NCBI GenBank assembly: GCA_030704615.1 | Contig: CM060734.1 | Location: 61,132,001 to 61,196,000, forward strand | Length of the DNA stretch: 64,000 nt | Source of the DNA: Takakia lepidozioides | Taxonomy: Eukaryota > Plantae > Bryophyta | Reading direction: 5' to 3' | Part shown: positions 5,001 through 59,923 of the stretch, piece by piece | Position numbering within the stretch: the stretch's first letter is position 1 | Layout: every line of letters starts with the position of its first letter | Program-made: the position numbers and the translations under genes | Notes under the pieces: generated by a model | Databases searched by the model: none | Told to the model about the DNA's origin: nothing | Seen by the model: only the letters and a program-made list of their open reading frames with translations

Positions 5001-5329
5001 AGGGGAGAGGCAAAGCCAAGAAGCGGACTGTCGTGGACCATGCTGAGGAGGTCGAGGAGGGTCCGAGTACCAAGAGACCGGCGAAGAAAAAGTCTGGCGT
5101 CTTTATGAACAAGAACCGCAAGCTGGCCTTGGACATGGACAAAGATGTGGGTCGTTTCCTGGAGCAGCACAGGTGAGTACTGTGCTCAGTCTCCTCGTCT
5201 GTCTTTGTCATTAAGTGTTTTGCGCTCTGTTGTGGTCAGTCTGCACGCTGGTGCTGGTTTCATCATTGTCTGTTGTGGTTAGTCTTGTCAGTCTGATGAA
5301 TTGTTCAGCCTGTAGAGTGTTTGGTACCA

Positions 5330-5414
5330 TGTCGTGCGCATACATATCGCTACACAACTACATCGCTGTCCAAACCACACCACACAGATATGCACAATAA
5401 AGTAGTCTGCCACA
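5330..5414 (-). repeat. Terminal 85-bp LTR segment Y (element 3' end)
   Basis: Direct repeat of 5769-5853 (3 mismatches in 85) and of 52090-52174. Confidence 0.95.
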
Positions 5415-5415
5415 A

Positions 5416-5853
5416 TGATAAGAAAACCAAAGAACACACTGTTGACACAAAACATGAAAACCAAAACCATCACTCTTTGAAATAGTAGTCGAGCCAGGGG
5501 CACCCCAAGCTATGGGGACTCCACCCCACAACAACCTACACTCCCATCATGAGTACACTCAGATCTAAACGCATGCAGGAGCTCGGTCGCGCAGGCTCAA
5601 CTCGAGAGAGGTGAGCCGCCCGACTGCCGCTCTCGTGAAGATAAGACGGGTCAGGTGTCAAACTAAACTTGACACCTGATTTAACACTTGACCTAAATCC
5701 AAGTGTTAAATACAAATAACTAGCTTTATTCTAGCTAGTTTCACACTGTGCTTATTTAACTTGACAGCTGTCGTGCGCATACGTATCGCTACATAACTAC
5801 ATCGCTGTCCAAACCACACCACACATATATGCACAATAAAGTAGTCTGCCACA
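5416..5853 (-). repeat. Complete 438-bp LTR (Y + GC + X), sense TGTGG...TATCA, preceded by a short PPT
   Basis: X = 5416-5766 repeats at 17004-17354; Y = 5769-5853; PPT-like AGGGGGGCGA (sense) at 5855-5864. Confidence 0.88.
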
Positions 5854-6113
5854 ATCGCCCCCCTAGCTGGTGGATAGGTCCCTCTAACTCCAGATAGCTA
5901 CAAGATGTAATAGCCACAGCCGTACTAAGTCCTCTATCACTGTCCCTATCGTGCTCAAACTCTATCAACCAAGAGGCCGGGTACAAGAGTAGCCCCATCG
6001 TTAGTCGCCGTCTTGCAATTTGTGAACTTGAGCCAAGATCTCGTGTGTTCAAGGTCTCCTAGTAGCTTGGCCTTGAATTTCTTGTTAGCCTTCCATGGTT
6101 GTATCCACTCCCA

Positions 6114-9100
6114 CTATCCAATGCAATGTGGACATAACCAATCCCCATCCGGAACCATCTCAAGAGGTGGAATCAAGCATCCCATATGCCAACCTCTAGA
6201 GCATCGATCACACACCAGCATGGTGGCCGCCCCTCTAGCAGACCCACACAACATGCACCTCAAACCTGCAGATACCACTGCCAGGTTTGGGTCAATCCTG
6301 CCATCAACATTCGGAAGGTGACATGGCGCACAATTACGCACATGGTCCTTCCAAGTTATGCCATCCCGACCCTCCAAGACCAAGACGCCTGAGGGCAAGA
6401 CCTCTCGAACCTTCAAAATAACACGTCCTGCAGTCACATCCAGGGTCGTAGGAGCAGTCTGCTGCAGATAGACATAGTCACCAGGGTTGAATCTCCGAAC
6501 CCCAGGACGATAGCCCCCACCACGTATGGTAGCATATCTCAACATATCACGGTGTTGTGCAATGGCAAGGTTTTCGAAAGCCATGGGCACGTGCCCACAC
6601 GTCCGGATCGTCAAGGTTAAGAACTGCAGCAGCTTCTCTGCGAAAGGATGCAGGCAAATCCGGCTCTCGGCCAAAGAGAAGAAAGTATGGTGAGAAGGAG
6701 GCAAGTGATGCTTGCTTGCTGAACCTGTAGCCCATGGCTAACCAGGGTAACTGAAGGTCCCAATCTTGTAGGTGTCCCTTCTGCAAGCCATACTTGCGCA
6801 AACCCCTCTTTACTGTCTTAACAACTTTCTTTGCCAAGCCATCGGCCTCAGGATGATCCCGAGAAGTGGTGCGGTGGTCTATCAAGGCCTTGTCACACAA
6901 AGCCTGAAACTCCCCCAAGAACTCTCTCCCTTGGTCCGTGAGTACCTCAGTTGGAGCACCGAATCGGCTAAGCACACAATCCAAGAATGCATACGTAGCT
7001 CCCTCACTAGCCTTATCAGGCAATGGAACCAACTCAATCCACTTGGAGAAGTGCTCCACCATCACCAACACGTACTTGTTGTGGCGCATGGTCAGTGGCA
7101 ACAGCCCTGCGAAGTCAAGACTCCACCTGTAGCCCAATCCCATGATCGGAAGAGGGTGCAATTGTGGAGTAGGGGCGTTGAATGAAGCACGCACCCTGTC
7201 ACACACCATGCACCTAGCCACAAATTGTTGCACCTCTGTGTGCATACCACGCCACCAATACTGCCCCTGCAGTAGACTATGAGTCACCCCAAAATGCCCC
7301 AACTCCTCATGGGCATGCCGCACTAACCGTGCCCGCTGTGTTGGGTGAGGCACAATCCTCACTCGACCATCCTCCCACACTCAGAGCAGGTGTGTCCCCT
7401 CCCACCTGAACCTCTTGGCTCGTTGTAGGATCCGATCCCTCTCTTTGGTAGTCACAGTGGCTGTCGTGTCTCTAGTGCGGAGGTAGTCCAACACAACTGA
7501 ATCCTCATGTATATCTTTGGCGCCACCTTGCTCATTGCTGGCCTCAGGGTCCTCAGACACTTGATCCACAGTTATCCGTGTTGCAGGTCCAACCTGGCCT
7601 TCCGCTGCCAAGATACACAGAAATGCAGATGCATGCCATCCGGGCACCATCTCCTCGTCCGTCTCACCATGCCACCGAGCTCCAGTGTCATCCTGTTGGC
7701 TCGTGCATGGATTGCGACTCAACCCATCTGCATTGCGATTGACCAAACCCGGTCGATGCACCACCTGAAAGTCATACTCTTGAAGGATGAGTGCCCACCG
7801 TGCAAGCTTCCCCGTAAGCTTGTCTGACTCCATCAACCACTTGAGTGGTTGGTGATCCATGACAAGGGTGAAGAGATTGCCGTATAGATAGCACCTGAAG
7901 TGTGCCACGGCCCACACTACAGCTAAGCATTCTCCTTCATATGAGCTATACTTAGACTCTACAGCGTTGTTCGAGCGGCTAGCATAAGCCACTACGAACT
8001 CTCTTCCCTCATCATCCACCTGTGTGAGCACCGCTCCAAGCCCCAACATGCTCCAATCTGTATGCAGCTGAAAAGAACGCCCCCTGATAGGTTGTCTCAA
8101 GATGGGCGCCGAGGTCAACCTCGCCTTGAGCTCTTGAAAAGCTTGTTCTTGCTCATCTTCCCACTGCCACTCCTGGTCCACCTTGGTCAGCTTGGTTAGA
8201 GCCTTTGCAATGGCACTAAATCCTTTAACAAACCGTCTGTAATAGTTTGCTAACCCCATGAAAGCTCGAACTCGGCTCACATCCGTGGGGCGTGGAACCT
8301 GTGCAATGGACTCTACCTTAGTCTGCTGTACCCCCAATCCTCCAGGATATATCATGTGACCCAGATACTCAATCTGGTTGTGGAAAAACTTGCACTTGCC
8401 TGGATGTAACTTCAATCCGTGCGTCCTTAAGCGCTCAAATACCCCCTGAAGGTGTCTCTCATGCTCCTCCACCGTAGCACTAAAGATGATGATGTCATCT
8501 ATGTAGCACCGAGCAAACTCCACCCCTGCTAGAATCCTGTCCATGACTCTTTGAAACTCAGCGGGAGCGTTTTTAAGCCCAAATGGTAAGAACCGCCACT
8601 GGTATAGGCAATCCTTCCTGTGCTCATTGATCCCCCAGAATGCCGTCTTTTGCTTATCCGCCTCCTTGATCGGCAACTGGTGATATCCGGATCGTAAATC
8701 CAACGTGCTAAAGACCTTGGAATGCCCAATGGCATCAAAGATCTCCTCTGGTGTCGGCATGGCATACCTATCGGACTTGGTCTGACGATTTACAGGCCGG
8801 TAATCACCGCACATACGTCTCTCCGTCCAATTGCCATAGACATCCTTCTTAGCTGGCATCACTGTGGCTGAAGCATACTCTCCACCAGAGAGCTCCACCA
8901 AACCTGCCTCCCAGAGATCTTGAGTCCTCATCTGAATCAAAGACCTCTCCATGTCACTGTATCTATAGGGTCTCCGAAAGATTGGCGTGTCAGTGGCCAA
9001 CTCAATACGGATCTCTTGACCCTTCAGTGCTCCCAAGTCCTTCAAACTGTAGGTAAAGCAATTCATGTAAGCCCTCAGGAACCGCCGTATATGTCGTCTC

Positions 9101-9204
9101 TCTCCTCCAGTGACAATGGGTCCAATGTCAGGCTCCCAATTGTCCTCCGTAACTGCAACCTTAAGTCCAGCAGACTTAGAGGTAGGAGACGCATCCCGTG
9201 GTTG
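6114..9204 (-). pseudogene. pol: RT, RNase H, integrase and C-terminal PHD finger
   Basis: RT motifs LDLRSGYHQ, PFGLKNAP, YIDD; RNase H LHTDWS..YEGECLA..DHQPL; integrase HHCC, WSLDFAG, LTDQG; PHD CMLC..CDRC..HMGC..WLCPHC; stop at 7381 and a deletion frameshift near 6590. Confidence 0.93.
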
Positions 9205-12200
9205 CTATGCTGCAACCTCTTGAGCAGTACTCCCTTCCTGCTCAGTCAATGACAAGGCCTCATCCTGCCTCATCATCTCATCATTGAGAACCTCCTCAAC
9301 CCGAGAAAAATCACCAACCTCATCCATCACAGCTACCTTGGCTGCCAACTCCCTTTGGACCTCGAGCACCTCCCATGTGTGCCATGGATGTCTACACCCC
9401 GTGGTCCTCACCGGCTCGCCCCCACTCGCTGCCTGTACCGTCTCGGTAGGCAGAGAGACCATGAAGGGGAGTGCACTCCGCACTCTACGTTGCTCAGCCA
9501 TAGCCAAGCTGATAATCCAGGTCAAGCAATTGAGATCCATTGCTTGCCCCAACACCTGACGCCGTGATGCCTCAGAAAGAGAAGGCACCGCCGTGGTCCC
9601 AGTGGAAAACCCCATAGCCCGCTCTCGCTCGTCGGCATTAGGCTCCACTAACTGCTGCAACTGAGCATCCCACAGGAGGCCAGGTCCACCATCCCGAAAA
9701 GCATGGGATCCTGGGAAGCTGAGCAGTGTAGGTAATGCTGCTTGTGGTTGACCCACCCTGTTGACCACTGCCAAAGGCGAACGGTCATTATGTCTCACAC
9801 GTTGAAACTGCCTCCCTGTGTCCAAAATGTTGTCCACTGTGAGGTGTGCTGGCCGTTGCACCCCATCAAATGCACGCTTGAGCAGTACGGGTGGCATCAA
9901 GTTAGTCCACCAAAGCCGTGGACGATGAGCCCGTGACCCCACTGCAGCTGCATCCAGCAACACTGCTGACCCAAGCCACGACCGGACTTGATGCACACTG
10001 GCCATCACCCTGGCCCGAGAATCACCCATCAGTGGCACATTCTCCAAGATGTATGCTGGAGATACAGCTTGATGAAGCTGCAAGTGGCACAAAACCCGCA
10101 CCATCTCTCAAAACAGACCCGTCCTCGAGTCTCGCAATCCATTGCCTTGCCCGGCTGATGAATGCCCTTGGCAGGGCCAACCTGCCACTACCAGATCAAT
10201 GGAGCCAACCTGCTCCAAATCCCGCGCCCCCAGCAAAGAAATGTCTGCTGGCAAGGCTTCTTGGTATCCACGAACTGCAGACACCGGCAACAACTCAGGG
10301 TACTGCTGCACCATCTGAGCAACATGGCGCAGTGAGACGCGTCGTGCAGTCTCATCCCTCTCCACATACAGGTAACGTCGAACTCGTACACCTGCCTGCA
10401 GCACTGCAGCCAATCCAGTGCTGATCCCGCCAAACAAGTCCAGAAGGCATATGCCTTCATCCGGGCACTGCCACACAATAAGTGTGGTGTCCAATGGCAA
10501 CAACTGAGGTGGTCCTGGTGCAATCACCGCACTCTCCTCCTCTCCTGACGGTACGAAAGCTTCTATCCAAGCTTGTTGCACCCGTCCATCAGCAGCCTGC
10601 TGCAAATCCTTGCTCGTACCCCACAATGGAGTGTGAGCAACCATGGCAGGCAACTCCGCCATACCATGCATGTCATCCTGCTCTGCCGGAGGTGGCACAT
10701 CCTCTGCATGAGCATTGCCTTCCAGCAACTCGCCAGGCCAACTAACTGCAGCTGTGAAGGTGGCTAGTGTTGGCATCTTGCCCCGCTGGACAGCCGCCAT
10801 ACCCCCAATGAATGTCACAGGGAGCTGTGCACGACGACCATCCCCTGACTGCCATCCAGGCTTGTAGGATGCTGACTCCTCCCAAAAGTCCAGGGTGAAG
10901 CCCATGGGGTATAACACTGCCCCACCAACGAGGACATCGTAAGAGACCGCGTCTGTCACAATGGCCTTAGCTCGCATCACTGAGCCATCTCTAGGATGAT
11001 CCGGCTGTAGTCTAATGGCCAACTGATGCCGTGTCATGCCTCGAGCCTGCTCTGATCCTCCCAGAGATGTCTGTATCTGGAAAGGACAAGGCTCCATATC
11101 TGCCTCCATGAGGCCCAAACCTGCAATAGCAGCTCTGCCCAACATCAGTGGCTGAGCTCCCGAGTCCAACAAGACCCGAAGTGGCCGGTACTTCTTGCCT
11201 GCCGGTCCACTCAAAGTGAAAATGCCTCTCTGGTTGTCTAACAAGACAACTCCAGGTGTCACCGTGGCGCGCTCAAAGGCTGGCCTAGCTGGCAGCTCTG
11301 TCAACCTGGCAGCTGCAGCTTGCCATGGCGCAGCCGTGGCAGTCTTGACCCTCAAATCCGAGGATCCCTCTGCCACTACACCTTCCACTAACTCCGCAGA
11401 AGATGAAGTGACCTCCCCACTCTCACAGAGTGTTACTGCTAGTCTGAACAGTGCAACTGGTCTCACCCCCGGTGTCGCAATCATTGTTGCCGAGAACAGT
11501 GGGGCCTGACACACAGAGGTGGCTGCCCCCAATAACACACCGGCCGCACTAGCCTTGGCAGCAGGAGTCAATGCTGCACGTGTAGCTCTCCCCAATGGCA
11601 TAGTAACCTCCGCCTAGGTAAGAGTCGGGCGAGAACTAGGTGCCATGGATGGCGTCGACACAGTCTCCGCCAATGTGAATGACTGAGGAAGCCTCGTCTG
11701 ACGGCTTGCCTCCCCACGCTGTGGATCCAATTCCACCTCTGCACCTCGTGGCTCAGGAACTCGTGATGCTCCTCGAGTCACGGCTGTAGCAGACTCCACC
11801 TGCTCTAGTGGTAGCGCTGCTCCGCACATGACTCCCATGCCTTCCATATCTCCTCCCTCAGGAGCAGGAGGTGGACCATCCCGCCTGGGAACTGGTACCG
11901 CCTGAACTATAGCCATGGCAGCGAGCCTCTGCTCTAGCTGCTGAAGCCGGTTGGCCATGCCTTGGTTAACACCCTGACCACCGCGTCCTTGGCCATGTTG
12001 AGCTTGCCCTTGGCCTGCACCTTGTGCCCGACCACCTCGTCCTCTCTGGGCTGGTCCACCTCGCCCCCAGCCACCATTGTTCCCTTGGAACTGGCCTGGG
12101 CGCAACTCAGGATGCAAGTCATAACACTGGGCATCTCCATGCCCATACTTGCCACAATGCCCACACTGCAACTGTGCAGGCTGTGCTTGTGCCGGCCTTC

Positions 12201-13409
12201 TGCCACTCTCTGGGCAATCTCTTTTGACATGGGGTCCTCCACATGTCCAACATATCACCCCTGGTTGTTGTTGGCCTGCAAAAGATGCCACGGGTTTCTG
12301 CACCCGAGGTCCCCTATAAGCTCCATGGAACTTGGGCTGGGAAACCTTGCCCCCCTGACCACGCTGCTAGGCAGTACCTTGTGTCTGTGGGCTGGCAGCT
12401 GCGCCTCGTGCAGGCATGTCCTTGCCAAATCCAATGGTAACAACTCGCTCCTCCACCATGTTGAGCTCAATCCGCTCAGCCAGCAGAAACACATTTGCTA
12501 ATGTGGGTTGGGCTGCTTGTAATAGGGTTGCATCTCGCACCCTTCTCTTGAGCTCCTTATCCAGAATTCCATACCAAAATTGGATTGCCTGAGCTTCAGT
12601 AACCCCTTGGGTCACACTTATCAAGCGCCTCATACGAGTGTACGCCTCTCGCAGGCTCTCACTGGGTTTGCGCTGGAAGTCTTGCAAACTTCGCAGCTTC
12701 TCTGTCCGTACACCTTGGTAGTTCCTCCGCAACTCCTGGAAGAACTCCACCACCGGGTTGAATCTAGGCACATGTGTTGTAGTCGTGGCAGGAGGAGTAG
12801 TAGCACCTTTTGAACTGGTACCACCTGCAGAGAAGTACCAGCACTACTTGCTCCACTACTAGTGCAGGCAGTGGGAGCTATTGGTACTGATGCAGCTACT
12901 GGTCGCGTCGTGCCTCGAGTAATGGAGACGTAGTCAGGTGACCAATACATCCTCCACTCCTCAATCTCTGCTTCATGTCCTCGCCTGAACTCGTGGTAAT
13001 CGCCCATAGGCGGGCCTTCCAAATGCTGGAACAGCCCCTTCCACGCCATGAATGGGGTGAATAGTTGTGGGTTGCGCATCTGCTGCAAATCACACCAGCT
13101 GTCGAACTCCTGGGTAAAGTCATCGAACTCGATTGTGCCCACAGCTCCAGAGTACCTACGAGGCCCCTTGGTAGCTCCATACATCTCCTCCATGTCGTCC
13201 CACAACAATGACGAATGAAAGTGCACACCTGTTGATGAAGCCTCCGAGTCTGTGTCTGACTCTACAGTAATTGAGGGTGGCGGTGAAGGTGGTCTGATCC
13301 GAATACCTCGTCTTGTGAACCCACTCTCACTGTTACTGCTTGTAGCCGTACTCCCCTCAAAACCCTTGGGTAACTCCGTAATGACACTCACAATGTGCAC
13401 CTCCTCCAC
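9205..13409 (-). pseudogene. gag, aspartic protease and DNMT3-like C5 cytosine methyltransferase (single ORF in the two-copy consensus)
   Basis: Zn knuckles CWTCGGPHVKRDC and CGHCGKYGHGDAQC; protease LLDSGAQ; MTase motifs LDLFGG, GWPCQ, ENV, RPRLWW, ERERAMGF, LGQAMD (~9520-10460); internal stops are not shared with copy 2. Confidence 0.9.
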
Positions 13410-13927
13410 GTGACACTATAAGGCTCTAGTACTAATCTAATAGTGACACAGGTGGGCACCTGTTGCAGTTTAAGGGTCATATCCCAATGGCTCAGGGCAC
13501 CTGCACCTGCATCCACCGCAAGAACTCCTATGGTTGGCTGGTCATCAACCCAGCCTCACCATAGAAGAAACACTGGTGGTCTTGCTGGTCATCACTCCAG
13601 CCTCACCTCCGACAGCATACTCTAGGATTGACCGGTGATCAAATCCGGCCTAATCCCTATGAAAGCAAGCGCCCACACAAAACCAACATGGCGCACAGTC
13701 AAGCATGCAGGTGTTGGGGGGGATCCAAACACAAGAAATCAAAACATCAACACCCCCACACCAAAATCCAGCTGCAATGCTGATCCTGCAGAATAGCCCA
13801 GCCCAAAACCCGGACTGACTGGCCTCCACCAAGAGAGGCTTTGGCAACTACAAGTACAAGGTAATGAAAATAGTACAGAGATGGAGGGGAAGAATAGAAG
13901 CCCGACCAAGCAAGATCTAATCTTGAT

Positions 13928-14677
13928 CTATGCTATCAACTGCCAGACTTCTCTCAAAGTGCCTCGCTCTGCATGATGGTAAGGTGTAGGAGGTATATCT
14001 ATGTCCAGAAACCTGCCACTAACCTTGTCCCAAGCTACAGTAGCTCGCTCTAACCAACCCTCCTCCTCTTTCTGCCAGGTAGAGACAAAGCAACACTCTG
14101 CTATCTCCCGCTCACTGAACACTAAAGAAAACAAAGGTAGGGTCTGATAGTCTCTCAACTCGAAAGCTTTGAGACGGTTGCGGGTGTCCTCATTACGAAT
14201 GACTGCATCTCCTTCACGCACAACAAACATGTCATTGCAAATGAACCCCCGCTCGTGGTTGCCCTGTGCAGAGCGTGTCCGACTGCAACACTGTCTGATT
14301 GCACAAACTTGTGCAGCTCCTGCTCCTCTGCTCCAGTACACCACGGCCTTGTGGCTGAACACCTTGGTACCCGGGGCTGTATTTGGCTGTGTTCCAAGCC
14401 TAGCTTTCACCCACTTTGGTATTTCACTTACAGCTGCAGAACTGCTGGCTCCAACAGAGTTCTGATTGTCCAAGGCGATATTGAGGCCCTCAACGCCAAC
14501 TACAGCAGTCTGTTGTCTACTGTTAATGCCTGACTCCCAGTATGCAATCAACTCGTCCAACTGTTCTCCACTCAAATCAGTCTGAGTTCCTTGGGAAACA
14601 TAAATCCTGTCCCCTTGTGTGCACAGGCTAAGAGAAGAGACCTGCCCTTCAATTACGTCCTCATTTCCCCCAGCCAT
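13928..14677 (-). CDS. Extra 249-aa ORF of unknown function in the retrotransposon 5' leader
   Basis: ATG-initiated, uninterrupted, same strand as gag-pol, inside the TSD-bounded element. Confidence 0.5.
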   Translation of the reverse strand: MAGGNEDVIEGQVSSLSLCTQGDRIYVSQGTQTDLSGEQLDELIAYWESGINSRQQTAVVGVEGLNIALDNQNSVGASSSAAVSEIPKWVKARLGTQPNTAPGTKVFSHKAVVYWSRGAGAAQVCAIRQCCSRTRSAQGNHERGFICNDMFVVREGDAVIRNEDTRNRLKAFELRDYQTLPLFSLVFSEREIAECCFVSTWQKEEEGWLERATVAWDKVSGRFLDIDIPPTPYHHAERGTLREVWQLIA

Positions 14678-16987
14678 ACAAGGAGTACATCCACAGATTT
14701 GTCTCTCATATAGACCAGCACAGGTTCTAGAAACAGAATTGTGGATCTTTCATGACACACTCACACTCTAAAAACTCCATAGATTTTTAGCAGAGTCCTA
14801 AAAACAAAAATATCTAGATAGGTAGATATCCCCTTTCTGCAGCTATCCCCCCAAAAACTGAGTCAAACAGAGTCCATTTGACAAAGATATGACCAATTTG
14901 GCTCTAATCAAAAGACCAAACAAATACAAAGAAAACTCTTTTTTTTATTAAAAAAAATACTTGTCTTGGTTCCCTGTTCCCTGGTTATCTACGGGTTCCC
15001 AAACATGTTCATGTAGTTCTCACAGTCTGGATTCACCCCCTCCTTCGTTCTGTGCTCTTATGTTGTGGCAGTGCGTGGGATGTGAAGGTCGGTGATGCGG
15101 GTCTTGGCCTTTCTGTCAAGGAGAACGTGAGAAGGCTTCAGATCAGTACACCCTGTGCTCCGGGCACTCAGGATGCAGGTACGCCAACGCGCGTTTGTTA
15201 CACCGATGGCAACGTTGAGTCGATCCCTTCAGCTCATATCCCGCTCATACACCAAGTGTCACCTGGTGAGTTCATAGTCTCCCACTCTCATGCTTTCCTG
15301 CAACAAACACGACCTTGAGGTTCAATCCTCCAAAACTGAGGATCGCCAGCCTGGGGAGGTTGACACTGTCAGAAAGGCGCCCCTCCCGTCCAGCAAATGG
15401 CCTAAGATCTGGTGACCTCGTCAATCCTCCCCTGGACTGCTCTTGCTTGGCTTTCTCACAGCTGCCTGCACCTGTCACTGTGTTTCTGCCTTGACATTTG
15501 ACTACCCTCCCAAGAATGTAGAAGTCCCTAAGATTCTCCGTCTGCCGCTGAAGCACTGTGGCAGTCAGGCTTGCCCTGGTGTCACCTTCCACCTCCCCAC
15601 CTTTCTTCAGGGCTTCAATCACTCTTTAAACTGCTCGTGTTATGGACAGCCCCAACAGACTGAATGTGGTTAGTAATGGGGGGTGTTTTCTGGGTAGTGT
15701 GATGAGCTCAAGGTTCGCTTTGGGGAGCCTTGATACTGATCGGGTTGCTGGTGCGGTCGTGACGGAATTCCGCCTGGGATGTGGACGTGGGCTGACCGTT
15801 GCATGTGGCTGTCGAAGAAAAAGGAATTGGTCCGTGAGAAGCCTGAAGAAGCGCGGTCTTACTTGCTTGCATCAATACAAGTATTGCCCATTTAATTTCC
15901 TCTCCTCTTCCCTACATCTCTCCCCACCTTAGCTCCCGGAAGAACTGTCCCCCAGTCTGTATGTCTTCTCTCCTTCTGTGCGTTGCCTACCGGTTTTTTA
16001 CGCACGGGAAAGCAACAACACAACCAAATGCAAACTACAGACTCTAGAAGAGAGAACGGACTAACAGGCGAAAAACTCAAGCCCGTGACGTTCTTCCTAG
16101 AGAAGCGACCCTGCCACCCATTCGCCAAAAACAGGGTCTTCTGACAAGTAGCATAAGGACGGACACTAGATGCCACAACAACTGTACTCAGCACTGGGGC
16201 ATGAGTTCCACCTTCAGCAACATGAAGACTCTTATCTCTCCAGCGTACTCCGATACCATCGCTCCGACATCCAAGCCACTGCCTTTTGCGAGTCAAACAC
16301 GGAAATTTCCCTCTACAAAACCCGCTATCAGTGCAATTCTCACGCTTCCCCGTCGTACACACGCCCCGGTCACACAAGAGGGCTTCGCAGGAGCTTTCCT
16401 CCCGTCCGCCATCTCACTTGCGTGGTATGAACAAGAAAATGGTGCTTGCTGGTCTACAGTCTATTCCTAAGTAGACACTGCTCATCACACATGCCTGACT
16501 CGGGCACACCCTGCAGAACTTCGGAGCGAATCCCCCGCGCAACAGTCGGGATTTGACTGACACGTCGGTGCTGCAGCAACAGCCGCTTGGCACCTTCAGT
16601 TATCAGAGGATTGCGACATAGCCTGTTGTGTAAACCGAGCACACAACCCAGTTGACTAGCATCTCAACCCAGCCTTTCCCTCTCAGTGGAGCCTCCCTGA
16701 CAATGAGAGCACATGACGTGGTTACAGAGTTCGTCTCCATGCGCGCAGGTGCAGTGTGAAGAAGCTTGAAAGGGCAGGCAGCCATGGCCGAGTTGCTGCC
16801 GTGCTTCAACCCCACTCTACCTATAACCCCCAAGTCCCACATTGCGATGAGGATGTGGAGAAACTCAAGCTCGCGCGTTCTATGCTCATTGCTTGAACTG
16901 TGTACAAGACCATGACCATCTATATTATAATAATGATGGTAAAAAAACAAAAAACATATCTAGCTTAGCACTGGAAAACTAGATAGA

Positions 16988-17003
16988 GCTCAGCTCTCTC
17001 GAG
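16988..17003 (-). promoter_or_regulatory. Putative self-priming primer-binding site
   Basis: Abuts X; reverse complement of an LTR-internal motif (15/16 to 5601-5616, 13/14 to 17192-17205); no TGG tRNA PBS present. Confidence 0.6.
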
Positions 17004-17354
17004 TGATAAGAAAACCAAAGAACACACTGTTGACACCAAATATGAAAACCAAAACCATCACTCTTGAAATAGTAGTCGAGCCGGGGGCCACCCCAAGCTA
17101 TGGGGACTCCACCCCACAACAACCTACACTCCCATCATGAGTACACTCAGATCTAAACGCAGTGCAGGAGCTCGGTCGTGCAGGCTCAAAGCGAGAGAGA
17201 TGAGCCGCGCGACTGCCGTCTCTCGTGAAGATAAGACGGGTCAGGTGTCAAACTAAACTTGACACCTGATTTAACACTTGACCTAAATCAAGTGTTAAAT
17301 ACAAATAATAGCTTTCTTTTAGCTAGTTTCACACTGTGCTTATTTAACTTGACA
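17004..17354 (-). repeat. Terminal 351-bp LTR segment X (element 5' end)
   Basis: Direct repeat of 5416-5766; not adjoined by Y. Confidence 0.95.
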
Positions 17355-18953
17355 ACCATGTTGACGTCAGTCTGTTTAGTACATGAGGCTTCACGAAGGA
17401 TGGTCTGCTCTGTGCAGGATGGGTGCTCGGTTTGGCAAAGCACATGCTCTGCACGTGAAGGCGGGTAATTCCATGCTGATGTTTTTTGAAGGGACCCACG
17501 GTTTGAATGCGGACTGTCGCCGGATGACATAAAGGCGGTCCAGAAGGTTGAGTCGGAGTGCACAGATAGACTCCTGGAGCTGTGGTGTCGATTCTATGAG
17601 AAGTCGGTTGAGGTTGTTTTCACCAATATTATTGCTGTTCTTCCAACGTCGACGTGGACGGTGTTGAAGTCATTGGGGGTGGGGCAACATGAAAGCCTTC
17701 TGGAGGTCTTGAAAGATTGCCTCAACACTGAACGACTGGGCAAGGACTTGAAAGAGTGCGATTTCATTTTGGTGCCAATTGGGGACGAGTAAGAACTCTT
17801 CTGAGTCTACTGAGACTGTCTCTTGAATCATAGTCTGGTTTCGCAGTGTCGTCTTGACTCTGAGCGATTAAGTTGACCTCTGTATTTGTGCAGTGGATGG
17901 GGTTTGAAGATTGAGTCTGCTGAGTGGTCGGTCTGCTGAGTCTGCCCATCATGATTGTGCAATGACGCCATGTTGTTTGATACCATTGCAGGGGGCACTG
18001 GAGTGTTTGTATCATCGACCTCCGCAAGGGCTGTTACACTCACCTGAACTCTATCAGGGACTCGCATAAATGTCCCTTTGTTCTAGGGTGGATTCGGAAG
18101 CTTCATGCTGAGTGCTTAGGGTACTCGATGGACTCACCAGAGTGGCATGAGATTGTCCAAGCATTTCAGTTCCACGCGCCTGATGTGCCCCAACAACCAT
18201 TCAGCTAGGAGTGTGGCTTTTACGTCATGTCATTCATTCAAGTGTTTTATGAGTGGGTAAAAGTCAGAAGCAAATCTCCAAGACTGCAAAGCCAAGAGGA
18301 TGAACACCTTTCACGAAGGACTGGTTTACTTTCAAGTTTGCACTTGGGCAGCGAATGCAGTGTGCCCAGTATATCGTGCGGGGGTTGGACAATGTAGAGA
18401 AACTGCTCTCATGAGTATACTTGTCATGTGAAAGTTATGTACCGAAATAAAAAATGCGAGTCTTTTCGCTTACTATTCCAGTGGTGATGAGCACTTTTGT
18501 GTACTGTGGGTGCTGACATGTTTTGTAATGTTGTCACTAAACTCAATGGACACAATGGTATCAATTTTTCCATGCACTGTGCACCCGAGTCTGCTGAGCT
18601 TGAATGTTCGAGCAGTACGCTGCCGAGGCTAGGACTGCTGGGTCTGGTACCTAGTCTGGGAGGCACCATGTCCATGAGTCCGCTGGGACGTTGGATTGGC
18701 ATAAGTTGCAGGGATGAGGTGGAAGTGTGGTGAGCAGACTTTTGGAGTGGGCAGCAGACTGACAGCAGACTGGCTTACTGGCGCTCGCAGTTGTTGACTG
18801 TGACTCTGTTGGGAGACTGTGCGTGAGTCCGTTGGGAGACTATGCTTGGGAGACTGTGTGGGAGTCAGTTGGGAGACTGGAGGAGTCCGTTGGGAGACTG
18901 TGCATTAGTCCATTGCGGCACTTGTATTTTAGAAAGGGACAATGCTACCAGAA

Positions 18954-19218
18954 GAATTGCAGACTTATATTGTCTTTTTCGTGATACCTACACGACATGA
19001 AACCTTGTCTCTTTTCGAGGAATTGCAGACTTATATTGTCTTCTTCGTCACACCTACACGACATGAAACCTTGTCTCTTTTCGAGGAATTGCAGACTATA
19101 TTGTCTTCTCCGTGGACACCTACACGACGTGAAACCTTGTCTCTTTTCGAGGCATTGCCAGACTTATATTGTCTTCTTCGTGACATCTACACGACCTGAA
19201 ACCTTGCGAATTTTCGAG
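18954..19218. repeat. 66-bp tandem repeat x4 at the 3' end of the MULE transposase
   Basis: gaattgcagacttatattgtc... recurs at 18954, 19020, 19086 and ~19151. Confidence 0.9.
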
Positions 19219-35210: not shown

Positions 35211-35754
35211 ACAAAGCTTCAGAGGTAGGCTTCAAGATAGCAGGGCTAAGGAGAGCGTTAAAATTTTAATCTGCCAATTAAATGATCCAGTGACAGTAGT
35301 AGGAGCAAGTGGCCAACTGTGGGCATTAATAGCAAATGTCTGGGAAGGCAATGTCACTGTTTCAGAAACATGTCATATGCTAGTTCATGGCTGTTGACGT
35401 AACAATTTATTTATAGTCTCTCTGCTTCTTGAGCTTCCTTGTCCGTGTTGCCTTTCATGCCTAGCTGAAGCCCGGTGAAAAATGGTTTCTCTTCAGTCAC
35501 TGGGATTATGCTTGCGTCAATGCAAGCATCATTCATGACAGAAAATTTAGGGGAGAGATCACACAGTTCATGTTTACAAGATCCCTCGTGTCACCCTCAT
35601 CCCTCTGTCACCCTCCCATTGGCATATCAAAATATTCATCCATTAACAAACGGAGTCTGTATAAATCGTCCGTCATCTTACAGATATGTCACCCTGGCTT
35701 CCCAGGCAGGGGAAATAGAGAAGAGGGGAGAGAGGCAGCGTGCGTGAAGCAGCG

Positions 35755-36255
35755 ATGGAGAACAACAAGAAGAAGGGGGCGGAGGAGAAGATGGAGGGGG
35801 TGTGCGAGAAGAAGATCAGGAACATATGCATAGTGGCGCATGTGGACCACGGCAAGACGACGATGGCCGATCACTTGATTGCGGCAGCAGGGGGCGGGGT
35901 TCTGCATGCCAGACAGGCGGGGAAGTTGCGGTACTTGGATTACCGGGACGATGAGCAGCAACGAGGTGTGACTATGAAGAGCTCTTCCATTGCTCTTAGA
36001 TTCAAAGGCTACCTTATTAACCTCATAGATTCCCCTGGTCATGTTGATTTCTGTAGCGAAGTGTCAACGGCAGCGCGTCTGAGTGATGGCGCATTGCTGC
36101 TTGTGGATGCCTGTGAGGGTGTGCATATACAGACGCACGCAGTGCTGCGGCAGGCATGGGTGGAGCGGGTCATACCCTGCCTGGTGCTTAATAAGATTGA
36201 CCGTCTGATACTGGAGCTTAAGCTCACCCCCTTGGAAGCATATGCGCGTATGCAG

Positions 36256-36301
<46 letters not shown>

Positions 36302-52089: not shown

Positions 52090-55000
52090 TGTCGTGCGCA
52101 TACTTATCGCTACACAACTACATCGATGTCCAAACCACACCACATATATATGCACAATAAAGTAGTCTGCCACAATCGCCCCCCTAGCTGGTGGATAGGT
52201 CCCTCTAACTCCAGATAGCTACAAGATGTAATAGCCACAGCCGTACTAAGTCCTCTATCACTGTCCCTATTGTACTCAAACTCTATAGATCAAGAGGCCG
52301 GGTACAAGAGTAGCCCCATCGTTAGTCGTTGTCTTGCAATCTGTGAACTTGAGCCAGGATCTCGTGTGTTCAAAGTCTCCTAGTAGCTTGGCCTTGCATT
52401 TCTTGTTAGCCTTTCATGGTTGTATCCACTCCCACTATCCAATGCAATGCGGACATAACCAATCCCCATCAGGAACCATCTCAAGAGGTGGAGTCAAACA
52501 TCCCATATGCCAACCTCTAGAGCATCGATCACACACCAGCATGGTGGCTGCCCCTCTAGCAGACCCACACAACATGCACCTCAAACTTGCAGGTACCACT
52601 GTCAGGTTTGGGTCAACCCTTCCATCAACATTTGGAAGGTGACATGGCGCGCAATTACGCACATGGTCCTTCCAAATCATATCATCCCGACCCTCCAAGA
52701 TCATGACTCCTGAGGGCAACACCTCTCGAACCCTCAAAATAGTACGTCCTGCAGTCACATCCAAGGTCGTAGGAGCAATCTGCTGCAGATAAACATAGTC
52801 ACCAGGGTTAAATCTCCGAACCCCAGGACGATAGCCCCCACCACATATGGTAGCATACCTCAACGTATCACGATGTTGTGCAATGGCAAGGTTCTCAAAA
52901 GCCATGGGCATGACTTTCTTGAACAACTCTGCACGCTGATCACATGCACGTGCCCACATGTCCGGATCGTCAAGGTTGAGAACTGTAGCAGCTTCTCTAC
53001 GAATGGATGCAGGCAAATCTGGCTCTCGGCCAAAGAGAAGAAAGTATGGTGAGAAGGAGGCAAGTGATGTTTGCTTGCTGAACCTGTAGCCCATGGCTAA
53101 CCAAGGTAACTGAAGGTCCCAATATCCTAGGTGTCTCTAGATCGAATTTCAAACAGCTTTTTACTTAAAAATGATGTTTACTCCAAAAATGTCTCAATTT
53201 CCCTCCCTCTCTGATTGCTCTCCCTGAATCAAATCTTTTCAACAGATTCCTCAGACACTTCATCATCCTCAACAACAGGCAAAGCCTCGACAAGAACCCC
53301 CTCCTCTGACTCAGTCAATATGACTTCTCCAATCTTGTGGTTGACATCTCCATTCACAGCAAGCTCAACTTCCTCCACCTTATCAAGCTCCATCTCCTCA
53401 TTTTTCTCAACTTGGCCATCTTTCGGCTCTCCTACACTTGCATCAGCATGCTGGGGAATCTCTAGTGAGGTAGGCCCATTCAACACCCCTTTCCCTTCAC
53501 TTTTTGTTCCATTCTCCCTTTTCTCCCTCGCATCATTCTGAAGCTTCAGAAAGTTCTCCTTCTTAGCCTTCACCTCCTCAAGACTCTTCGAAATATGGTG
53601 CGGTGGTCTACCAAGGCCTTGTCACACAATGCCTGAAACTCCCCCAAGAACTCTCTCCCTTGGTCCGTGAGTACCTCAGCTGGAGTATCGAATCGGCTAA
53701 GTACACAATCCAAGAATGCATACGCAGCTCCCTCACTAGCCTTATCAGGCAATGGAACCAACTCGATCCACTTGGAAAAGTGCTCCACCATCACCAACAC
53801 GTACTTGTTATGGCGCATGGTCAGTGACAATGGCCCTGCGAAGTCAAGACTCCACCTGTAGCCTAATCCCATGATCGGAAGAGGGTGCAATTGTGGAGTA
53901 GGGGCGTTGAATAAAGCACGCACCCTGTCATACACCATGCACCTAGCCACAAATTGTTGCACCTCTGTGTGCATACCACGCCATCAATACTACCCCTGAA
54001 GTAGACTATGAGTGCGTCGCACCCCAAAATGCCCCAACTCCTCATGGGTATGCCGCACTAACCGTGCCTGCTGTGTTGGGTGAGGCACAATCCTCACTCG
54101 ACCATCCTCCCACACTCGGAGCAGATGTGCCCCCTCCCACTTGAACCTCTTGGCTCATTGTAGGATCCGATCCCTCTCCTGGACAGTCACAGTGGTTGTC
54201 GTGTCTCCAGTGCGGAGGTAGTCCAACACAGCTGAATCCTCATGTATATCTTTGGCGCCACCTTGCTCATTGCTGGCCTCAGGGTCCTCAGACACTTGAT
54301 CTACAGTCATCCCTGTTGCAGGTCCAACCTGGCCTTCCGCTGCCAAGATACACAGAAATGCAGATGCATGCCATCCGGGCACCATCTCCTCATCCGTCTC
54401 ACCATGCCACCGAACTCCAGTATCATCCTGCTAGCTCGTGCATGGATTGCGACTCAACCCATCTGTATCCCGATTGACCAAACCCGGTCGATGCACAACT
54501 TGAAAGTCATACTCTTGAAGGATGAGTGCCCCGTGCAAGCTTCCCCGTAAGCTTGTCTGACTCCATCAACCACTTGAATGGTTGGTGATCCGTGACAAGG
54601 GTGAAGAGATTGCCGTATAGATAGCACCTGAAGTGTGCCACGGCCCACACTTCAGCTAAACATTCTCCCTCATATGAGCTATACTTAGACTCTACAGCGT
54701 TGTTCGAGCGGCTAGCATAAGCCACTACGAACTCTCTTCCCTCATCATCCACCTGTGTGAGCACCGCTCCAAGCCCCAGCATGCTCCAATCTGTATGCAG
54801 CTGAAAAGGACGCCCCCTGATAGGTTGTCTCAAGATGGGCGCCGAGGTCAACCTCGCCTTGAGCTCTTGGAAAGCTCGTTCTTGCTCATCTTCCCACTGC
54901 CACTCCTGGTCCACCTTGGTCAGCTTGGTTAGAGCCTTTGCAATGACACTAAATCCCTTGACAAACCGTCTATAATAGTTTGCCAACCCCATGAAAGCTC

Positions 55001-58000
55001 GAACTCGGCTCATATCCGTGGGGCGTGGAATCTGTGCAATGGCCTCTACCTTAGTCTGTTGTACCCCCAATCATCCAGGATATATCATGTGACCCAAATA
55101 CTCAATCTGGTTGTGGAAAAACTTGCACTTCCCCGGATGTAACTTCAATCCGTGCGCCCTCAAGCGCTCAAATACCACTTGAAGGTGTCTCTCATGCTCC
55201 TCCACCATAGCACTAAAGATGATGATGTCATCTATGTAGCACCGAGCAAACTCCACCCCTGCTAGAATCCTATCCATGACTCTCTGAAACTCTGTAAGAG
55301 CGTTCTTAAGCCCAAATGGTAAGAACCGCCACTGGTATAGGCAATCCTTCCCGTGCTATTTGATCCCCCGGAATGTCGTCTTCTGCTTATCCGCCTCCTT
55401 GATCGGCAACTGGTGATATCCGGATCGTAAATCCAAAGTGCTAAAGACCTTGGCATGCCCAATGGCATCAAAGATCTCTTCTGGTGTTGGCATGACATAC
55501 CTATCGGACTTGATCTGACGATTTACAGGCCGGTAATCACCGCACATACGTCTCTCCGTCCAATTGCCATAGACATCCTTCTTGGCTAACATCTAACTAT
55601 CATAGCTCCACCAAACCAGCCTCCCAAAGGTCCTGAGTTCTCATCTGAATCAAGGACCTCTCTATGTCACTGTATCTATAGGGTCTCCGAAAGATTGGCG
55701 TGTCAGTAGCCAATTCAATGCGAATGTCTTGACCCTTCAGTGCTCCTAAGTCCTTCAAACTGAAGGCAAAGCAGTTCCTGTAAGCCCTCAAGAACCGCCG
55801 TATACGTCGTCTTTCTCCTCCGGTGACTATAGGTCCAACATCAGGCTCCCAGTTGTCCTTCGTGACTGCAACCTTGAGTCCAGCAGGCTTAGAGGTAGAA
55901 GACGCGTCTCGTGATTGTTATGCTGCAACCTCTTGAGCAGTGACCAGTGCCTCCTCTGTCAGTGACAATGTCTCATCCTGCCCCATCATCCCGTCCTTGA
56001 GGACCTCCTCAACCCGAGAAAAATCCACAACCTCATCCATCACGGCCGCCTTGGCTGCCAACTCCTTTTGAACCTCAAGCACCTCCCACGTGTGCCATGG
56101 ATGCGGCCTGCACCTCGTGGTCCTCACCTGTTCGCCCCCACTCGTTGTCTGTACTGTCTCGATAGGCAGGGAGACCATCAAGGGAATTGTACTTCGTACT
56201 CTGCGCTGCTCAGCCATAGCCAAGCTGATAATCCAGGTCAAGCAATTGAGATCCATTGCTTGCCCCAACACCTGAAGACGTGATGCCTCAGAAAGAGATG
56301 GCACTGCCGTGGTACCAGTGGTGAAACCCATCGCCCACTCACGCTCGTTAGCATTGGGCTCCACTAATTGCTGCAACTGGCTATCCCACAAGAGGCCAGG
56401 TCCACTATCCCAAAAAGCATGAGATCCTGGAAAGCTGAGCAGTGTAGGCAATGTGGTTCGTGGGTGACCCACCTTATTGACCACTGCCAAAGGTGACCGG
56501 TCATCGTGTCTCACTCGCTGAGACTGTCTCCCTATGTCCAAATGCTATCCACCGTCAGGTGTGGTGGCCGCTGCACCCCATCAAATGCACGCTTGAGCAG
56601 TGCAGGTGACATAAAGTTGGTCCATCATAGTTGTAGGCGATGAGCCCGTGACCCCACTGCAGCTGCGTCCAGCAACACTGCAAACCTAAGCCAAGACCGC
56701 ACTTGATGTACACTGGCCATCACCTTGGCCCGAGAATCACTCATCAATGGCACATTCTCCAATATATATGTTGGAGAGTCTGTCTGCTGAAGTTGTAAAT
56801 AGCGTAGGACCCTCAACATTTCCCAAAACAGGCATGACCTTGAGTCGTGTAACCCATTGCCATGCCCGACTAAAGAATGCCCTTGGCAGGGCCAACCTGC
56901 CACTACCAAGTGAATAGGGTCAACTCGCTCTAAATCATGCGCCCCCAGCAAAGAGATGTCTGCTGGCAATGCTTGTTGGTATCCACGAACTGTAGACACT
57001 GGCAACAAATCAGAGTACTGCTGCACCAACTGAGCAACATGGCGCAGTGAGACGCGTCGTGCAGTCTCATCCCTCTCTACATACAGGTAATGTCGAACTC
57101 GTATACCTGCCTGCAGTACTGCAACCAATCCAGTGCTGATCCCGCCAAACAAGTCCAGAAGGCATATGCCTTCATCCGGGCACTGCCACACAAGAGGTGT
57201 GGTGTCCAATGGCGACAACTGAGGTGGTCCTGGTGCAATCGTCGCACTCTCCTCCTCTCCTGACGATACAAAAGCCTCTACCCAGGCTTGTTGCACCCGT
57301 CTATCAGCAGCTTGCTGCAAATGCTTACTCGTACCCCACAATGGAGTGTGAACAACCATGGCAGGCAACTCCGCCGTACCATGCATGTCATCCTGCTCTG
57401 CTGGAGGTGGCACATCCTCTGCATGGGCATTGCCCTCCAACAACTCTCCAGGCCAACTAACTACAGCTGTGAAGGCTGCTAGTGTTGGCATCTTGCCCTG
57501 CTGGGCAGCAGCAACACCCCCAATGAATGTCACAGGGAGCTGTACACGACGACCATCCCCTGACTGCCATCCAGGCCTGTAGGATGCTGACTCCTCCCAA
57601 AAATCCAGGGTGAAGCCCATGGGATACAATACTGCCCCACCAACGAGGACATCGTAAAATACCGCATCTGTTACAATGGCCTTGGCTCGCATCACTGAGC
57701 CATCTATAGGATGATCCGGCTGTAGTCTAATGGCCAACTCACGCGGTGTCATGCCCCGAGCCTACTCTGATCCTCCCAGAGATGTATGTATCTGGAAAGG
57801 ACAAGGCTCCATATCCGCCTCCATGAGGCCCAAACCTGCAATAGTAGCTCTGCCCAACATTAGTGGCTGAGCTCCCGAGTCCAACAAGACCCGCAGTGGC
57901 CGGTACCTCTTGCCTGCCGGTCCACTCAAAGAGAAAATGCCATCCTGGTTGTCTAATAAGACAACTTCAGGTGTCACCATGGCGCGCTCAAAGGCTGGCC

Positions 58001-59923
58001 TAGCTGGCAGCTCCGTCAACCTGGCAGCTGTAACTTGCCATGGCGCAGCCGTGGCAGTCTTGACCCTCAAATCCGAGGATCCCTCTGCCACTACACCCTC
58101 CACTAACTCCGTAGAAGATGAAGTGACCTCCCCACTCTCGCAGAGTGTTGCTGCTAGTCTGAACACTGCAGCTGGTCTTACCCCTGGCGTCACAATCATG
58201 GTTGCCGAGAACAGTGGGGCTTGACACACAGAGGTGGCTGCCCCCAACAACACACTGGCTGCATTAGCCTTGGTAGCAGGTGTCAGTGCTGTACGTGTAG
58301 CTCTCCCCAATGGTACAATAACGACCTCTGTATCTGTCGGACGAGAACTAGGTGCCATGGATGTCGTCGACACTGTCTCCCCCAAGATGAATGATTGAGG
58401 CAACCTAGCCTGACGGCTTGCCTCCCCACGTTGTGGATCTAACTCTACCTCTGCACCTCGTGGCTCAGGAACTCGTGCTGCTCCTCGAGTGACGACTGCA
58501 GCAAACTCCACCTGCATTAGTGGTAGTGCTGCCCCACACATAAATCCCATGCCTCCCATGTCTTCTCCGTCAGGATGACGCTGCTGAGGAGGAACATGAG
58601 GTGGACCCTCAGGTCTTGGAGCTGGTACCACCTGAGCTGTGGCCATGGCAGCAAGCCTTTGCTCTAGTTGCTGAAGCCGGTTGGTCATGCATTGGTCAAC
58701 GCCCTGACCTCCACGTCCTTGGCCATACTGTGCTTGCCCTTGTCCTACACCTCGTGCCTGACCACCTCGTCCTCTCTGAGGTGCTCCAGCTCGCCCTCGG
58801 CCACCATTGTTCCCTTGGAACTGGCCTTGCCGCAACTCAGGGTGCAAGTCATAACACTTGGCATCTCCATGCCCATACTTGCCACAATGCCCACACTGCA
58901 ACTGTGCAGGCTGTGCTTGTGCCGACCTTTTGCCACTCTCTGGGCAATCTTTCTTGACATGGGGTCCTCCACATGTCCAACATATCACCCCTGGTTATTG
59001 TTGGCTTGCAAAAGATGCTACTGGCCTCTGCACCTGAGGTCCCCTGTAAGCTCCATGGAATTTGGGTTGGGAAACCTTGCCCCCCTGACCACGCTGTTGG
59101 GCAGTCCCTTGTGCCTGTTGACTGGCCTGCGCCTCGTGCAGGCATGTCCTTGCCAAATCCAATGGTAACAACTCGCTCCTCCACCATGTTGGGCTCAATC
59201 CGCTCAGCCAGCAGAAACACATCTGCTAATGTGGGTTGGGCTGCTTGTAACAGGGCTGCATCCCGCACCCTTCTCCTGAGCTCCTTGTCTAAAATTCCAT
59301 ACCAGAACTGGACTGCCTGAGCTTCAGTAACCCCTTGGGTCACACTTATCAAGCGCCTCATACGAGTGTAGGCCTCTCGCAAGCTCTCACTGGATTTGCG
59401 CTGGAAGTCTTGCAAACTGCGCAACTTCTCTGTCCGTACGCCTTGGTAGTTCGTCCGCAACTCCTGGAAGAACTCCACCACCGGGTTGAAACTATACACA
59501 TGTATTGTAGTCGTGGCAGGAGGAGTAGTAGCACCTTTTGAACTGGTACCACCTGCAGAAGTACCAGCACTACTTGTTCCACTACTAGTGCTGGCCGTGG
59601 GAGATATTGGTGTTGATGCCGCTACTGGTCGCGTTGTGCCTCGAGTAATGGAGACGTAGTTAGGTGACCAATACATCCTCCACTCCTCAATCTTTGCTTC
59701 ATGTCCTCGCCTGAACTCGCGGTAATCGTCCATAGGCGGACCTTCCAAATGCTGGAACAATCCCTTCCACGCCATGAATGGGGTGAACAACTGTGGATTG
59801 CGCATCTGCTGCAAATCACACCAGTTGTCGAACTCCTGGATAAAGTCATCCAGCTCGATTGTGCCCACAGCTCCAGAGTACCTACGAGGCCCCTTGGTAG
59901 CTCCATACATCTCCTCCATGTCG
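52090..59923 (-). mobile_element. Copy 2 of the DNMT/PHD Ty3/gypsy retrotransposon, 5'-truncated and decayed
   Basis: Colinear with 5769-13198; ends exactly at the Y terminus (tgtcgtgcg, 52090); same gag-PR-DNMT-RT-RH-IN-PHD order; many private stops and frameshifts. Confidence 0.93.
53136..53595 (-). other. Foreign ~460-bp segment replacing ~90 bp of the integrase in copy 2
   Basis: Alignment to copy 1 breaks after ggtgtc (53135) and resumes at tggtgcggtgg (53596); carries an acidic E/K-rich ORF end (53229-53573). Confidence 0.75.

Follow-up and report, generated by a model that had tools for sequence, protein, structure and literature searches.

In a 64,000-nucleotide window of contig CM060734.1 (assembly GCA_030704615.1, forward-strand positions 61,132,001 to 61,196,000; all coordinates below are those of the window), we identified two copies of a retrotransposon that carries its own cytosine DNA methyltransferase (DNMT). 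Copy 1, the principal element studied here, is a decayed member of a Ty3/gypsy family found in mosses and liverworts. Its domains follow the order gag, protease (PR), DNMT, stop codon, reverse transcriptase (RT), RNase H (RH), integrase (INT) and PHD finger, that is, the Ty3/gypsy order with a DDE integrase after RNase H, and the methyltransferase terminates the Gag-PR frame just ahead of a conserved in-frame stop. Cytosine methylation is the main means by which plants silence transposons, and an element that keeps, under selection, a de novo methyltransferase of its own is a standing puzzle; why it does so was left open for the algal relative, where the sole assay failed (PMC5890265). We propose, at what we judge to be an even chance for the whole chain, that the enzyme is packaged at the level of Gag and methylates the element's own complementary DNA (cDNA). 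A fuller picture is offered more tentatively and is the less probable claim: mosses and liverworts, the model Marchantia among them, would have a Ty3 lineage that makes its DNMT at capsid stoichiometry through amber readthrough, primes without a tRNA, integrates through cleavage of a palindrome in circular cDNA instead of through linear ends and leaves pre-methylated insertions; in a sister lineage, the same enzyme lies between RNase H and integrase. The features that carry this argument are the following.

9490..10461, minus strand: DNMT3-like C5 cytosine methyltransferase domain of copy 1, with a premature stop at 10108-10110
9199..9207, minus strand: conserved in-frame stop of copy 1, TAG CAA CCA, closing the Gag-PR-DNMT frame in a readthrough-type context
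52090..59923, minus strand: copy 2, 90.8% identical over 6.3 kb, 5' part absent
56251..57158, minus strand: DNMT domain of copy 2, motifs I to X, broken; match to Pfam DNA_methylase with E=1.2e-9
55918..55920, minus strand: conserved stop of copy 2, TAA CAA TCA

On the minus strand of copy 1, the motifs LDLFGG (10426-10443), YVERD (10354-10368), GWPCQ (10168-10182), ENV (10036-10044), AHRPRLWWTNL (9898-9930), ERERAMGF (9607-9630) and RRQVLGQAMD (9535-9564) correspond to DNMT motifs I, II, IV, VI, VIII, IX and X. Their order is unpermuted, and they share one frame with the upstream LLDSGA protease motif and the downstream RT. With its premature stop read as X, the domain matched Pfam DNA_methylase with E=1e-11 (45.3 bits, cut-off 22). 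A sequence search of the PDB returned 35 matches, 29 of them to DNMT3A, DNMT3B or DNMT3C (best E=1.2e-10); the other six were of the DRM type, with E of at least 5e-5 and covering the N-terminal half alone, and none was DNMT1, MET1 or CMT. For the fold comparison we used a model of P0326, an unbroken homolog with 74% identity (predicted local distance difference test score, pLDDT, 91). Its top matches were DNMT3B (Z 28.8, root-mean-square deviation 2.6 over 278 residues) and DNMT3A (Z 27.5), followed by bacterial M.MpeI (Z 25.3), DNMT2 (Z 21-23), ZMET2 (18.3), MET1 (16.8) and DRM2 (9.4). By motif order, sequence and the fold of this modelled homolog, the domain is DNMT3-like; on the sequence matches and fold scores we rejected a DRM or MET1/CMT type. 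An earlier note on this DNA had described C5-methyltransferase motifs in canonical order in both copies, resembling DNMT3 rather than MET1, CMT or DRM, and had proposed a DNA_methylase profile search and a selection test as checks. All the motifs it listed were located in both copies, both gave a profile match, the likeness to DNMT3 held in sequence and fold, and selection is purifying, as described below. The note had also placed the domain inside the retrotransposon polyprotein between protease and RT: the position stands, but the domain is not part of Pol and instead ends the Gag-PR frame.

Both window copies of the domain are broken. The premature stop of copy 1 falls between motifs IV and VI and is absent from nearly all read depth of other copies; in copy 2, motif VIII is altered (AHRLQL), and a stop and a frameshift precede motif IX. 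Copy 2 further holds about 460 bp of unrelated DNA within its integrase (53139-53595). Across 191 full-length domains, however decayed these two are, the catalytic motifs PC, ENV and RxR are retained in 173, 177 and 180 (about 91-94%). Between the window copies, the ratio of nonsynonymous to synonymous divergence (dN/dS) of the DNMT was 0.22 (bootstrap 0.15-0.32; dS 0.36, dN 0.08), indicating purifying selection on the methyltransferase; RT gave 0.14 and the remaining domains 0.32-0.46. Five more distant pairs with an estimable dS gave 0.08-0.17, and one further pair was saturated in dS and yielded no ratio, as saturation affected most distant pairs. Divergence between the two copies reaches about 15% in the DNMT region (9200-10400), versus 4-6% over RH-INT. 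Because this excess is mostly synonymous, it suggests recombination or module exchange between subfamilies.

An in-frame stop between DNMT and RT is common to both window copies (9205-9207 and 55918-55920). We surveyed this site in 59 loci in which both the end of the DNMT and the start of RT were present, namely 57 of 80 fetched loci plus the two window copies. TAG or TAA occupied the homologous in-frame position in 55 of the 59, in 54 cases followed by CA(A/G); the stop motif was one base out of frame in two loci and missing from two. In four sequencing runs, positions 9199-9207 showed no variant at or above 3%, while nine neighbouring positions varied. This invariance and the 55 loci rule out mere decay as the origin of the stop at 9205. 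Locus L025 displays the arrangement in uninterrupted form, with two open reading frames (ORFs) in the same frame, one of 1369 amino acids with the DNMT at its end and one of 1047 amino acids encoding RT-RH-INT-PHD, joined by TAG CAG TTA. Likewise, 39 of 45 proteins with a protease followed by a DNMT had no RT match, most of them stopping within about 170 residues past the DNMT. UAG-CAR-YYA is the readthrough signal of tobacco mosaic virus (TMV), functional in plants (PMC2754532), and the contexts found in divergent subfamilies include TAGCAACCA, TAGCAGTTA and TAGCAATCA (TAG CAA CCA, TAG CAG TTA and TAG CAA TCA), each of which matches it. Our literature search found no paper on readthrough at CARYYA contexts in retrotransposons. 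Because the DNMT domain lies upstream of the conserved stop, we infer that it is made with Gag and protease and not as part of an RT-containing Pol, and RT-RH-INT-PHD is likely produced by readthrough. Readthrough at TAG-CAR-YY would then yield RT-RH-INT-PHD as a minor extension, and each particle would carry the DNMT at a Gag-like copy number.

The remaining features of copy 1 include an unusual set of split repeats.

5330..17354, minus strand: whole element copy 1, 12,025 bp, termini TGTC...GACA
5326..5329, unstranded: target-site duplication ACCA, left
17355..17358, unstranded: target-site duplication ACCA, right
17004..17354, minus strand: repeat A1 at the element 5' end, 351 bp, 95.5% identical to A2
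16994..17004, minus strand: primer-binding-site-like 11-mer at the A1 end, with its complement within repeat A; predicted self-priming site
13416..16993, minus strand: 3.6-kb leader; ORFs tested contain no domain
12370..13415, minus strand: gag region with frameshift and stops; Retrotrans_gag E=3.7e-4, under the curated cut-off
10882..11289, minus strand: aspartic protease region with LLDSGA motif; no Pfam match of its own
7774..8820, minus strand: reverse transcriptase and RNase H; RVT_1 E=1e-32, RT_RNaseH E=2.8e-35
6850..7344, minus strand: integrase zinc finger and core; Integrase_H2C2 E=1e-12, rve E=2e-14
6123..6257, minus strand: C-terminal PHD finger, E=7e-11, frameshifted in copy 1
5856..5866, minus strand: polypurine-tract-like run abutting B1, conserved CTAGGGGGGCG-type run
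5769..5855, minus strand: repeat B1, 3 differences from B2 in 87 bp
5763..5772, unstranded: palindromic junction GACA-GC-TGTC at the B1/A2 joint, predicted integrase cleavage site
5416..5766, minus strand: repeat A2, containing the primer-like 11-mer at 5600-5610
5330..5416, minus strand: repeat B2 at the element 3' end

Copy 1 has the TG...CA ends and short target-site duplication of Ty3/gypsy elements. Its gag region is 40-76% identical to those of main-group loci, the protease homolog of L025 gave weak Asp_protease matches (E=2e-4, under the cut-off), and in 28 of 31 cases the PHD finger and INT lie in one frame. No Chromo domain was matched in the scanned ORFs, the PHD finger standing in its place. 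In DIRS and Ngaro elements, a tyrosine recombinase replaces the integrase; DIRS membership is ruled out here by the rve core and H2C2 finger, with no recombinase match in the scanned ORFs. A viral origin was also rejected: the viral-contig scan contained no relative apart from one unconfirmed pattern match, although this is weak evidence. The leader (13416-16993) had no translated match among the 80 loci and no Pfam match in the three ORFs tested. It measures about 3.6 kb, versus about 1 kb at related loci, and holds a 273-codon stop-free frame (13928-14749, minus strand) without a Pfam match.

Copy 1 has neither paired long terminal repeats (LTRs) at its termini nor a tRNA primer site. It displays instead one repeat A at the 5' end and B1-GC-A2-B2 at the 3' end, that is, A...B-GC-A-B, together with a self-complementary primer site; just ahead of B1 lies a G-rich run, in the position that a polypurine tract takes before a 3' LTR. 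L037, L065, L074 and L078 share this layout and have 4-bp duplications, the last two loci perhaps representing one insertion. A recognisable B repeat was present in 23 of the 80 loci, of which 8 run on into A2, 14 stop at B1 and 1 leaves its contig. Copy 2 also terminates at B1, without A2-B2, and the three short-form loci with both ends visible carry a 4-bp duplication, one of them with a degenerate end. Beginning at the final base of A1, an 11-mer matches an exact complement within A in three unlike sequences, those of the window, L037 and L025; in L037 and L025 the complementary stretch lies about 30 bases past a TATA-like box. Control 20-mers with an equal match numbered 0 of 50 in the window, L037 and L074. 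These observations point to a route in which reverse transcription would self-prime with the first ~11 bases of the transcript and the true LTR would be B-GC-A. The cDNA ends would then join into a circle, and integrase would cut one internal GACA-GC-TGTC with loss of the two central bases; an end-joined circle cut at one such internal site gives exactly the genomic arrangement A...B-GC-A-B. For the short form A...B, possible sources are a circle with a single LTR, cleavage of both palindromes, or recombination between B1 and B2 at a later time. Foamy-virus integrase cleaves a palindromic circle junction (PMC1180852, on the text available), which offers a precedent and is not evidence for the moss element. 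Split-repeat Gypsy elements matching this family were not found described in our literature search. Directly downstream of the element at L067 lies a second INT-PHD element (14586-17192 of that locus), with its own GACA-GT-TGTC junction and split repeats.

What would a methyltransferase made at the level of Gag do for the element? In the proposal that we favour, the packaged enzyme would mark the cDNA, and a new insertion would be methylated from the outset, which may shield the cDNA from host surveillance or dampen the new copy. The earlier note had likewise suggested that the enzyme may methylate the element's cDNA or its insertion site. Several results weigh against this proposal and against the route on which it is built. 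No footprint of self-methylation rose above background: the observed-to-expected CpG ratio was 0.50-0.51 in the element, 0.52 in the window and 0.43 in an exon of the host gene EFL1, and C/T differences (CG 0.17, CHG 0.17, CHH 0.08) were those expected from host methylation, the test being a weak one because the host methylates all repeats. The Klebsormidium domain produced no methylation in yeast, a result its authors regard as inconclusive (PMC5890265). Two pairs of close, decayed metagenome copies gave DNMT dN/dS of 0.37 and 0.44, suggesting weaker selection. As to readthrough, the most frequent stop context, TAG/TAA CAA CCC (46 of 55, the largest subfamily), lacks the final A of CARYYA, and the 59 loci amount to about four independent lineages, most being near-copies of one subfamily. 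As to self-priming, the primer complement did no better than controls at L065 and L078 (2 of 50 each; two of the five loci tested), and the exact 11-mer was not found in L014.

Two other roles compete with cDNA methylation, and we consider each of them unlikely. The enzyme could act in trans in the nucleus, methylating integrated copies, rival transposons or host sequences and thereby limiting copy number or competition. Output at the level of Gag, far above the need of one cDNA, fits such a role, and slowed transposition is among the options offered by de Mendoza et al. (PMC5890265). The benefit would, however, be shared with copies that lack the domain, making steady purifying selection and retention in both layouts harder to explain, and a family as abundant in this host as this one, with 21,737 contig records from one run, is not self-limiting in appearance. 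Alternatively, and with similarly low probability in our estimate, the domain could be retained for something other than DNA methylation, either methylation of the packaged RNA or nucleic-acid binding in packaging, circle formation or integration. The failed yeast assay of the Klebsormidium domain and the fusion to Gag, which fits an RNA or particle function, speak for this possibility, and for the enzymes borne by long interspersed elements (LINEs), RNA methylation is a possibility mentioned by de Mendoza et al. (PMC5890265). By contrast, the retention of catalytic PC, ENV and RxR, a fold nearer to DNMT3 than to the DNMT2 tRNA enzymes, and the ability of related SymbioDIRS-Dnmt3 domains to methylate CG (PMC5890265) argue against it. 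Finally, the broken state of both window copies and the high divergence of the DNMT region might suggest a neutral passenger or a recently captured fragment of a host DNMT3 gene. This reading is very improbable, being contradicted by a dN/dS well below 1 and by deep conservation: the extra divergence lies at synonymous sites, proteins of liverworts, Sphagnum and Closterium have the domain at the same place, and the main groups are alike in the DNMT and RT trees.

The family also occurs in other bryophytes. Homolog lists comprised all 55 of 55 matches in one case and the best 120 of 187 in another. Among the matches listed, named relatives include Marchantia polymorpha gene models, with up to 72% identity over nearly the full domain, M. 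paleacea, Riccia sorocarpa, Calypogeia fissa (74%), Sphagnum fallax, S. troendelagicum and S. tenellum; the nearest named alga was Closterium (38% identity), and none of the species-labelled matches listed, a minority of the rows, came from a vascular plant. The homolog searches yielded neither a named Klebsormidium sequence nor any host DNMT3 or DRM sequence. Clustering at 50% gave 259 clusters with E<=1e-30. In 203 proteins, the DNMT followed a protease or preceded RT in 58, lay between RNase H and integrase in 82, stood alone in 62 and was joined to gag in 1. The RT-RH-DNMT-INT-PHD proteins (82 of 203, for example P0048, P0052 and P0195) form a large sister group. A single branch separates the two layouts in the DNMT tree (52 rows, 95% support) as well as in the RT tree (37 rows, 97%); both trees were quick and unrooted, with half of the RNase H-DNMT-INT group left out. 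The DNMT domains of the window, liverworts and Sphagnum formed one group (100%), in which Sphagnum pairs with Marchantia and not with the window moss. Identity between the window and Calypogeia was 76% for the DNMT and 65% for EFL1; horizontal transfer among bryophytes is possible on these comparisons. Separately, P0350, a 50% identical homolog, comes from a 2.4-kb contig labelled as a bacterial metagenome-assembled genome and is likely a misbinned piece of a eukaryotic transposon.

The EFL1 gene also served to place the host. Its exon at 36674-38239 shares 72% identity with Ceratodon, 70% with Diphasiastrum and 65-67% with liverworts, and in a tree of 29 rows from 120 listed matches it is sister to the Ceratodon group (support 98/96). 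Judging from this one gene in a tree with no identifiable hornwort or Sphagnum row, the window probably comes from a moss that falls outside the Ceratodon group. On the same tree we rejected an alga as host. The earlier note had suggested that the lineage of DNMT-carrying retrotransposons, established in charophyte algae and dinoflagellates, extends into this apparent land plant, with an algal host as the finding that would lower its novelty. We found the precedent in both groups (PMC5890265), and EFL1 groups with mosses, supporting a land-plant host; the extension is, however, not special to this plant, liverworts and Sphagnum having the family as well.

Compared with known systems, the moss element fits the described KnitGypsy-Dnmt3 kind from Klebsormidium nitens and thus belongs to a known kind, whose host range it widens. 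In the text of PMC5890265 available, the algal element likewise has the Gypsy domain set, an intronless and unpermuted Dnmt3-like domain in its polyprotein, a DIRS-type repeat arrangement (matched here by description) and purifying selection on the DNMT (Ka/Ks <0.2, versus 0.22 for the moss element). The two differ in the location of the DNMT, given as the Pol ORF for KnitGypsy-Dnmt3 and found here at the end of the Gag-PR frame, and in host, an alga versus a land plant, the comparison being one of descriptions and not of sequences. The PHD finger, readthrough, self-priming and circle integration go unmentioned for KnitGypsy-Dnmt3 in that text and may still apply there. SymbioDIRS-Dnmt3 and SymbioLINE-Dnmt of Symbiodinium are also retrotransposon-borne C5 methyltransferases, the former with de novo CG methylation in yeast, but they belong to the DIRS and LINE classes, which the same paper treats as unrelated to Gypsy; the moss element, by contrast, has 4-bp target duplications and a DDE integrase. 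EpiLTRs and DAM-LTRs are Ty3-like elements that, like the moss element, combine a DNA methyltransferase with a chromatin-reader domain (bioRxiv 10.64898/2026.05.21.726589). Their DNMT is sister to DNMT4 and in the Cymbomonas elements is attached at the 3' end, together with an adenine methylase and a chromodomain, and the authors distinguish this DNMT from streptophyte Gypsy-DNMT3. Tf1/Sushi elements are known to self-prime, and the same is predicted for Tcn1, which is present in mosses and club-mosses (Neumann et al. 2019, PMC6317226). Both resemble the moss element in lacking a tRNA primer site and in predicted self-priming, but carry chromodomains; the moss element has split repeats, a DNMT and a PHD finger. 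The DNMT3 enzymes of bryophyte and animal hosts share the motif order and fold; the moss-element DNMT shows about 23-25% structural identity to DNMT3A/B and is embedded in a transposon, while moss host DNMT3 carries out de novo CHH methylation (PMC9516144).

Morozov et al. (2019) regarded methylase-encoding transposons as absent from land plants such as tracheophytes (PMC6338049, available text). This claimed land-plant absence fails for bryophytes, given the named liverwort and Sphagnum matches. The species table of de Mendoza et al. (2018) includes Physcomitrella and neither Marchantia nor Sphagnum (PMC5890265), and a 2025 paper and the 2026 preprint cited above mention such elements as reported from streptophytes, naming no land plant in the text available. 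We found no land-plant description of the Gypsy-DNMT3 family in the literature searched, where most papers were judged from their listing and most subscription papers lay outside its reach; a 'DNA methylase domain' in a fern genome was rejected as precedent, the term there denoting host CMT. The Marchantia polymorpha copies, such as Mp_4g09160 and Mp_8g17980, are annotated as hypothetical proteins, and their presence in a genetic model makes enzyme activity, readthrough and the circle route testable. Such gene models can probably be mistaken for host DNMT3 genes in gene counts, and search tools that look for paired LTRs would likely overlook the split repeats.

Beyond the two element copies, the window contains the host EFL1/RIA1 elongation-factor-like GTPase gene (35719-40152, plus strand) and, on the same strand, host gene pieces of the Lysine_decarbox family (34725-35210, E=3e-20) and of a calcineurin-like phosphoesterase (26976-27476, E=2.5e-7). 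A LINE-like element with a zinc knuckle and an endonuclease (60735-64000, plus strand) adjoins the truncated 5' end of copy 2. Tandem repeats with units of 66 bp and about 444 bp occupy 18951-19215 and 675-1530, respectively.

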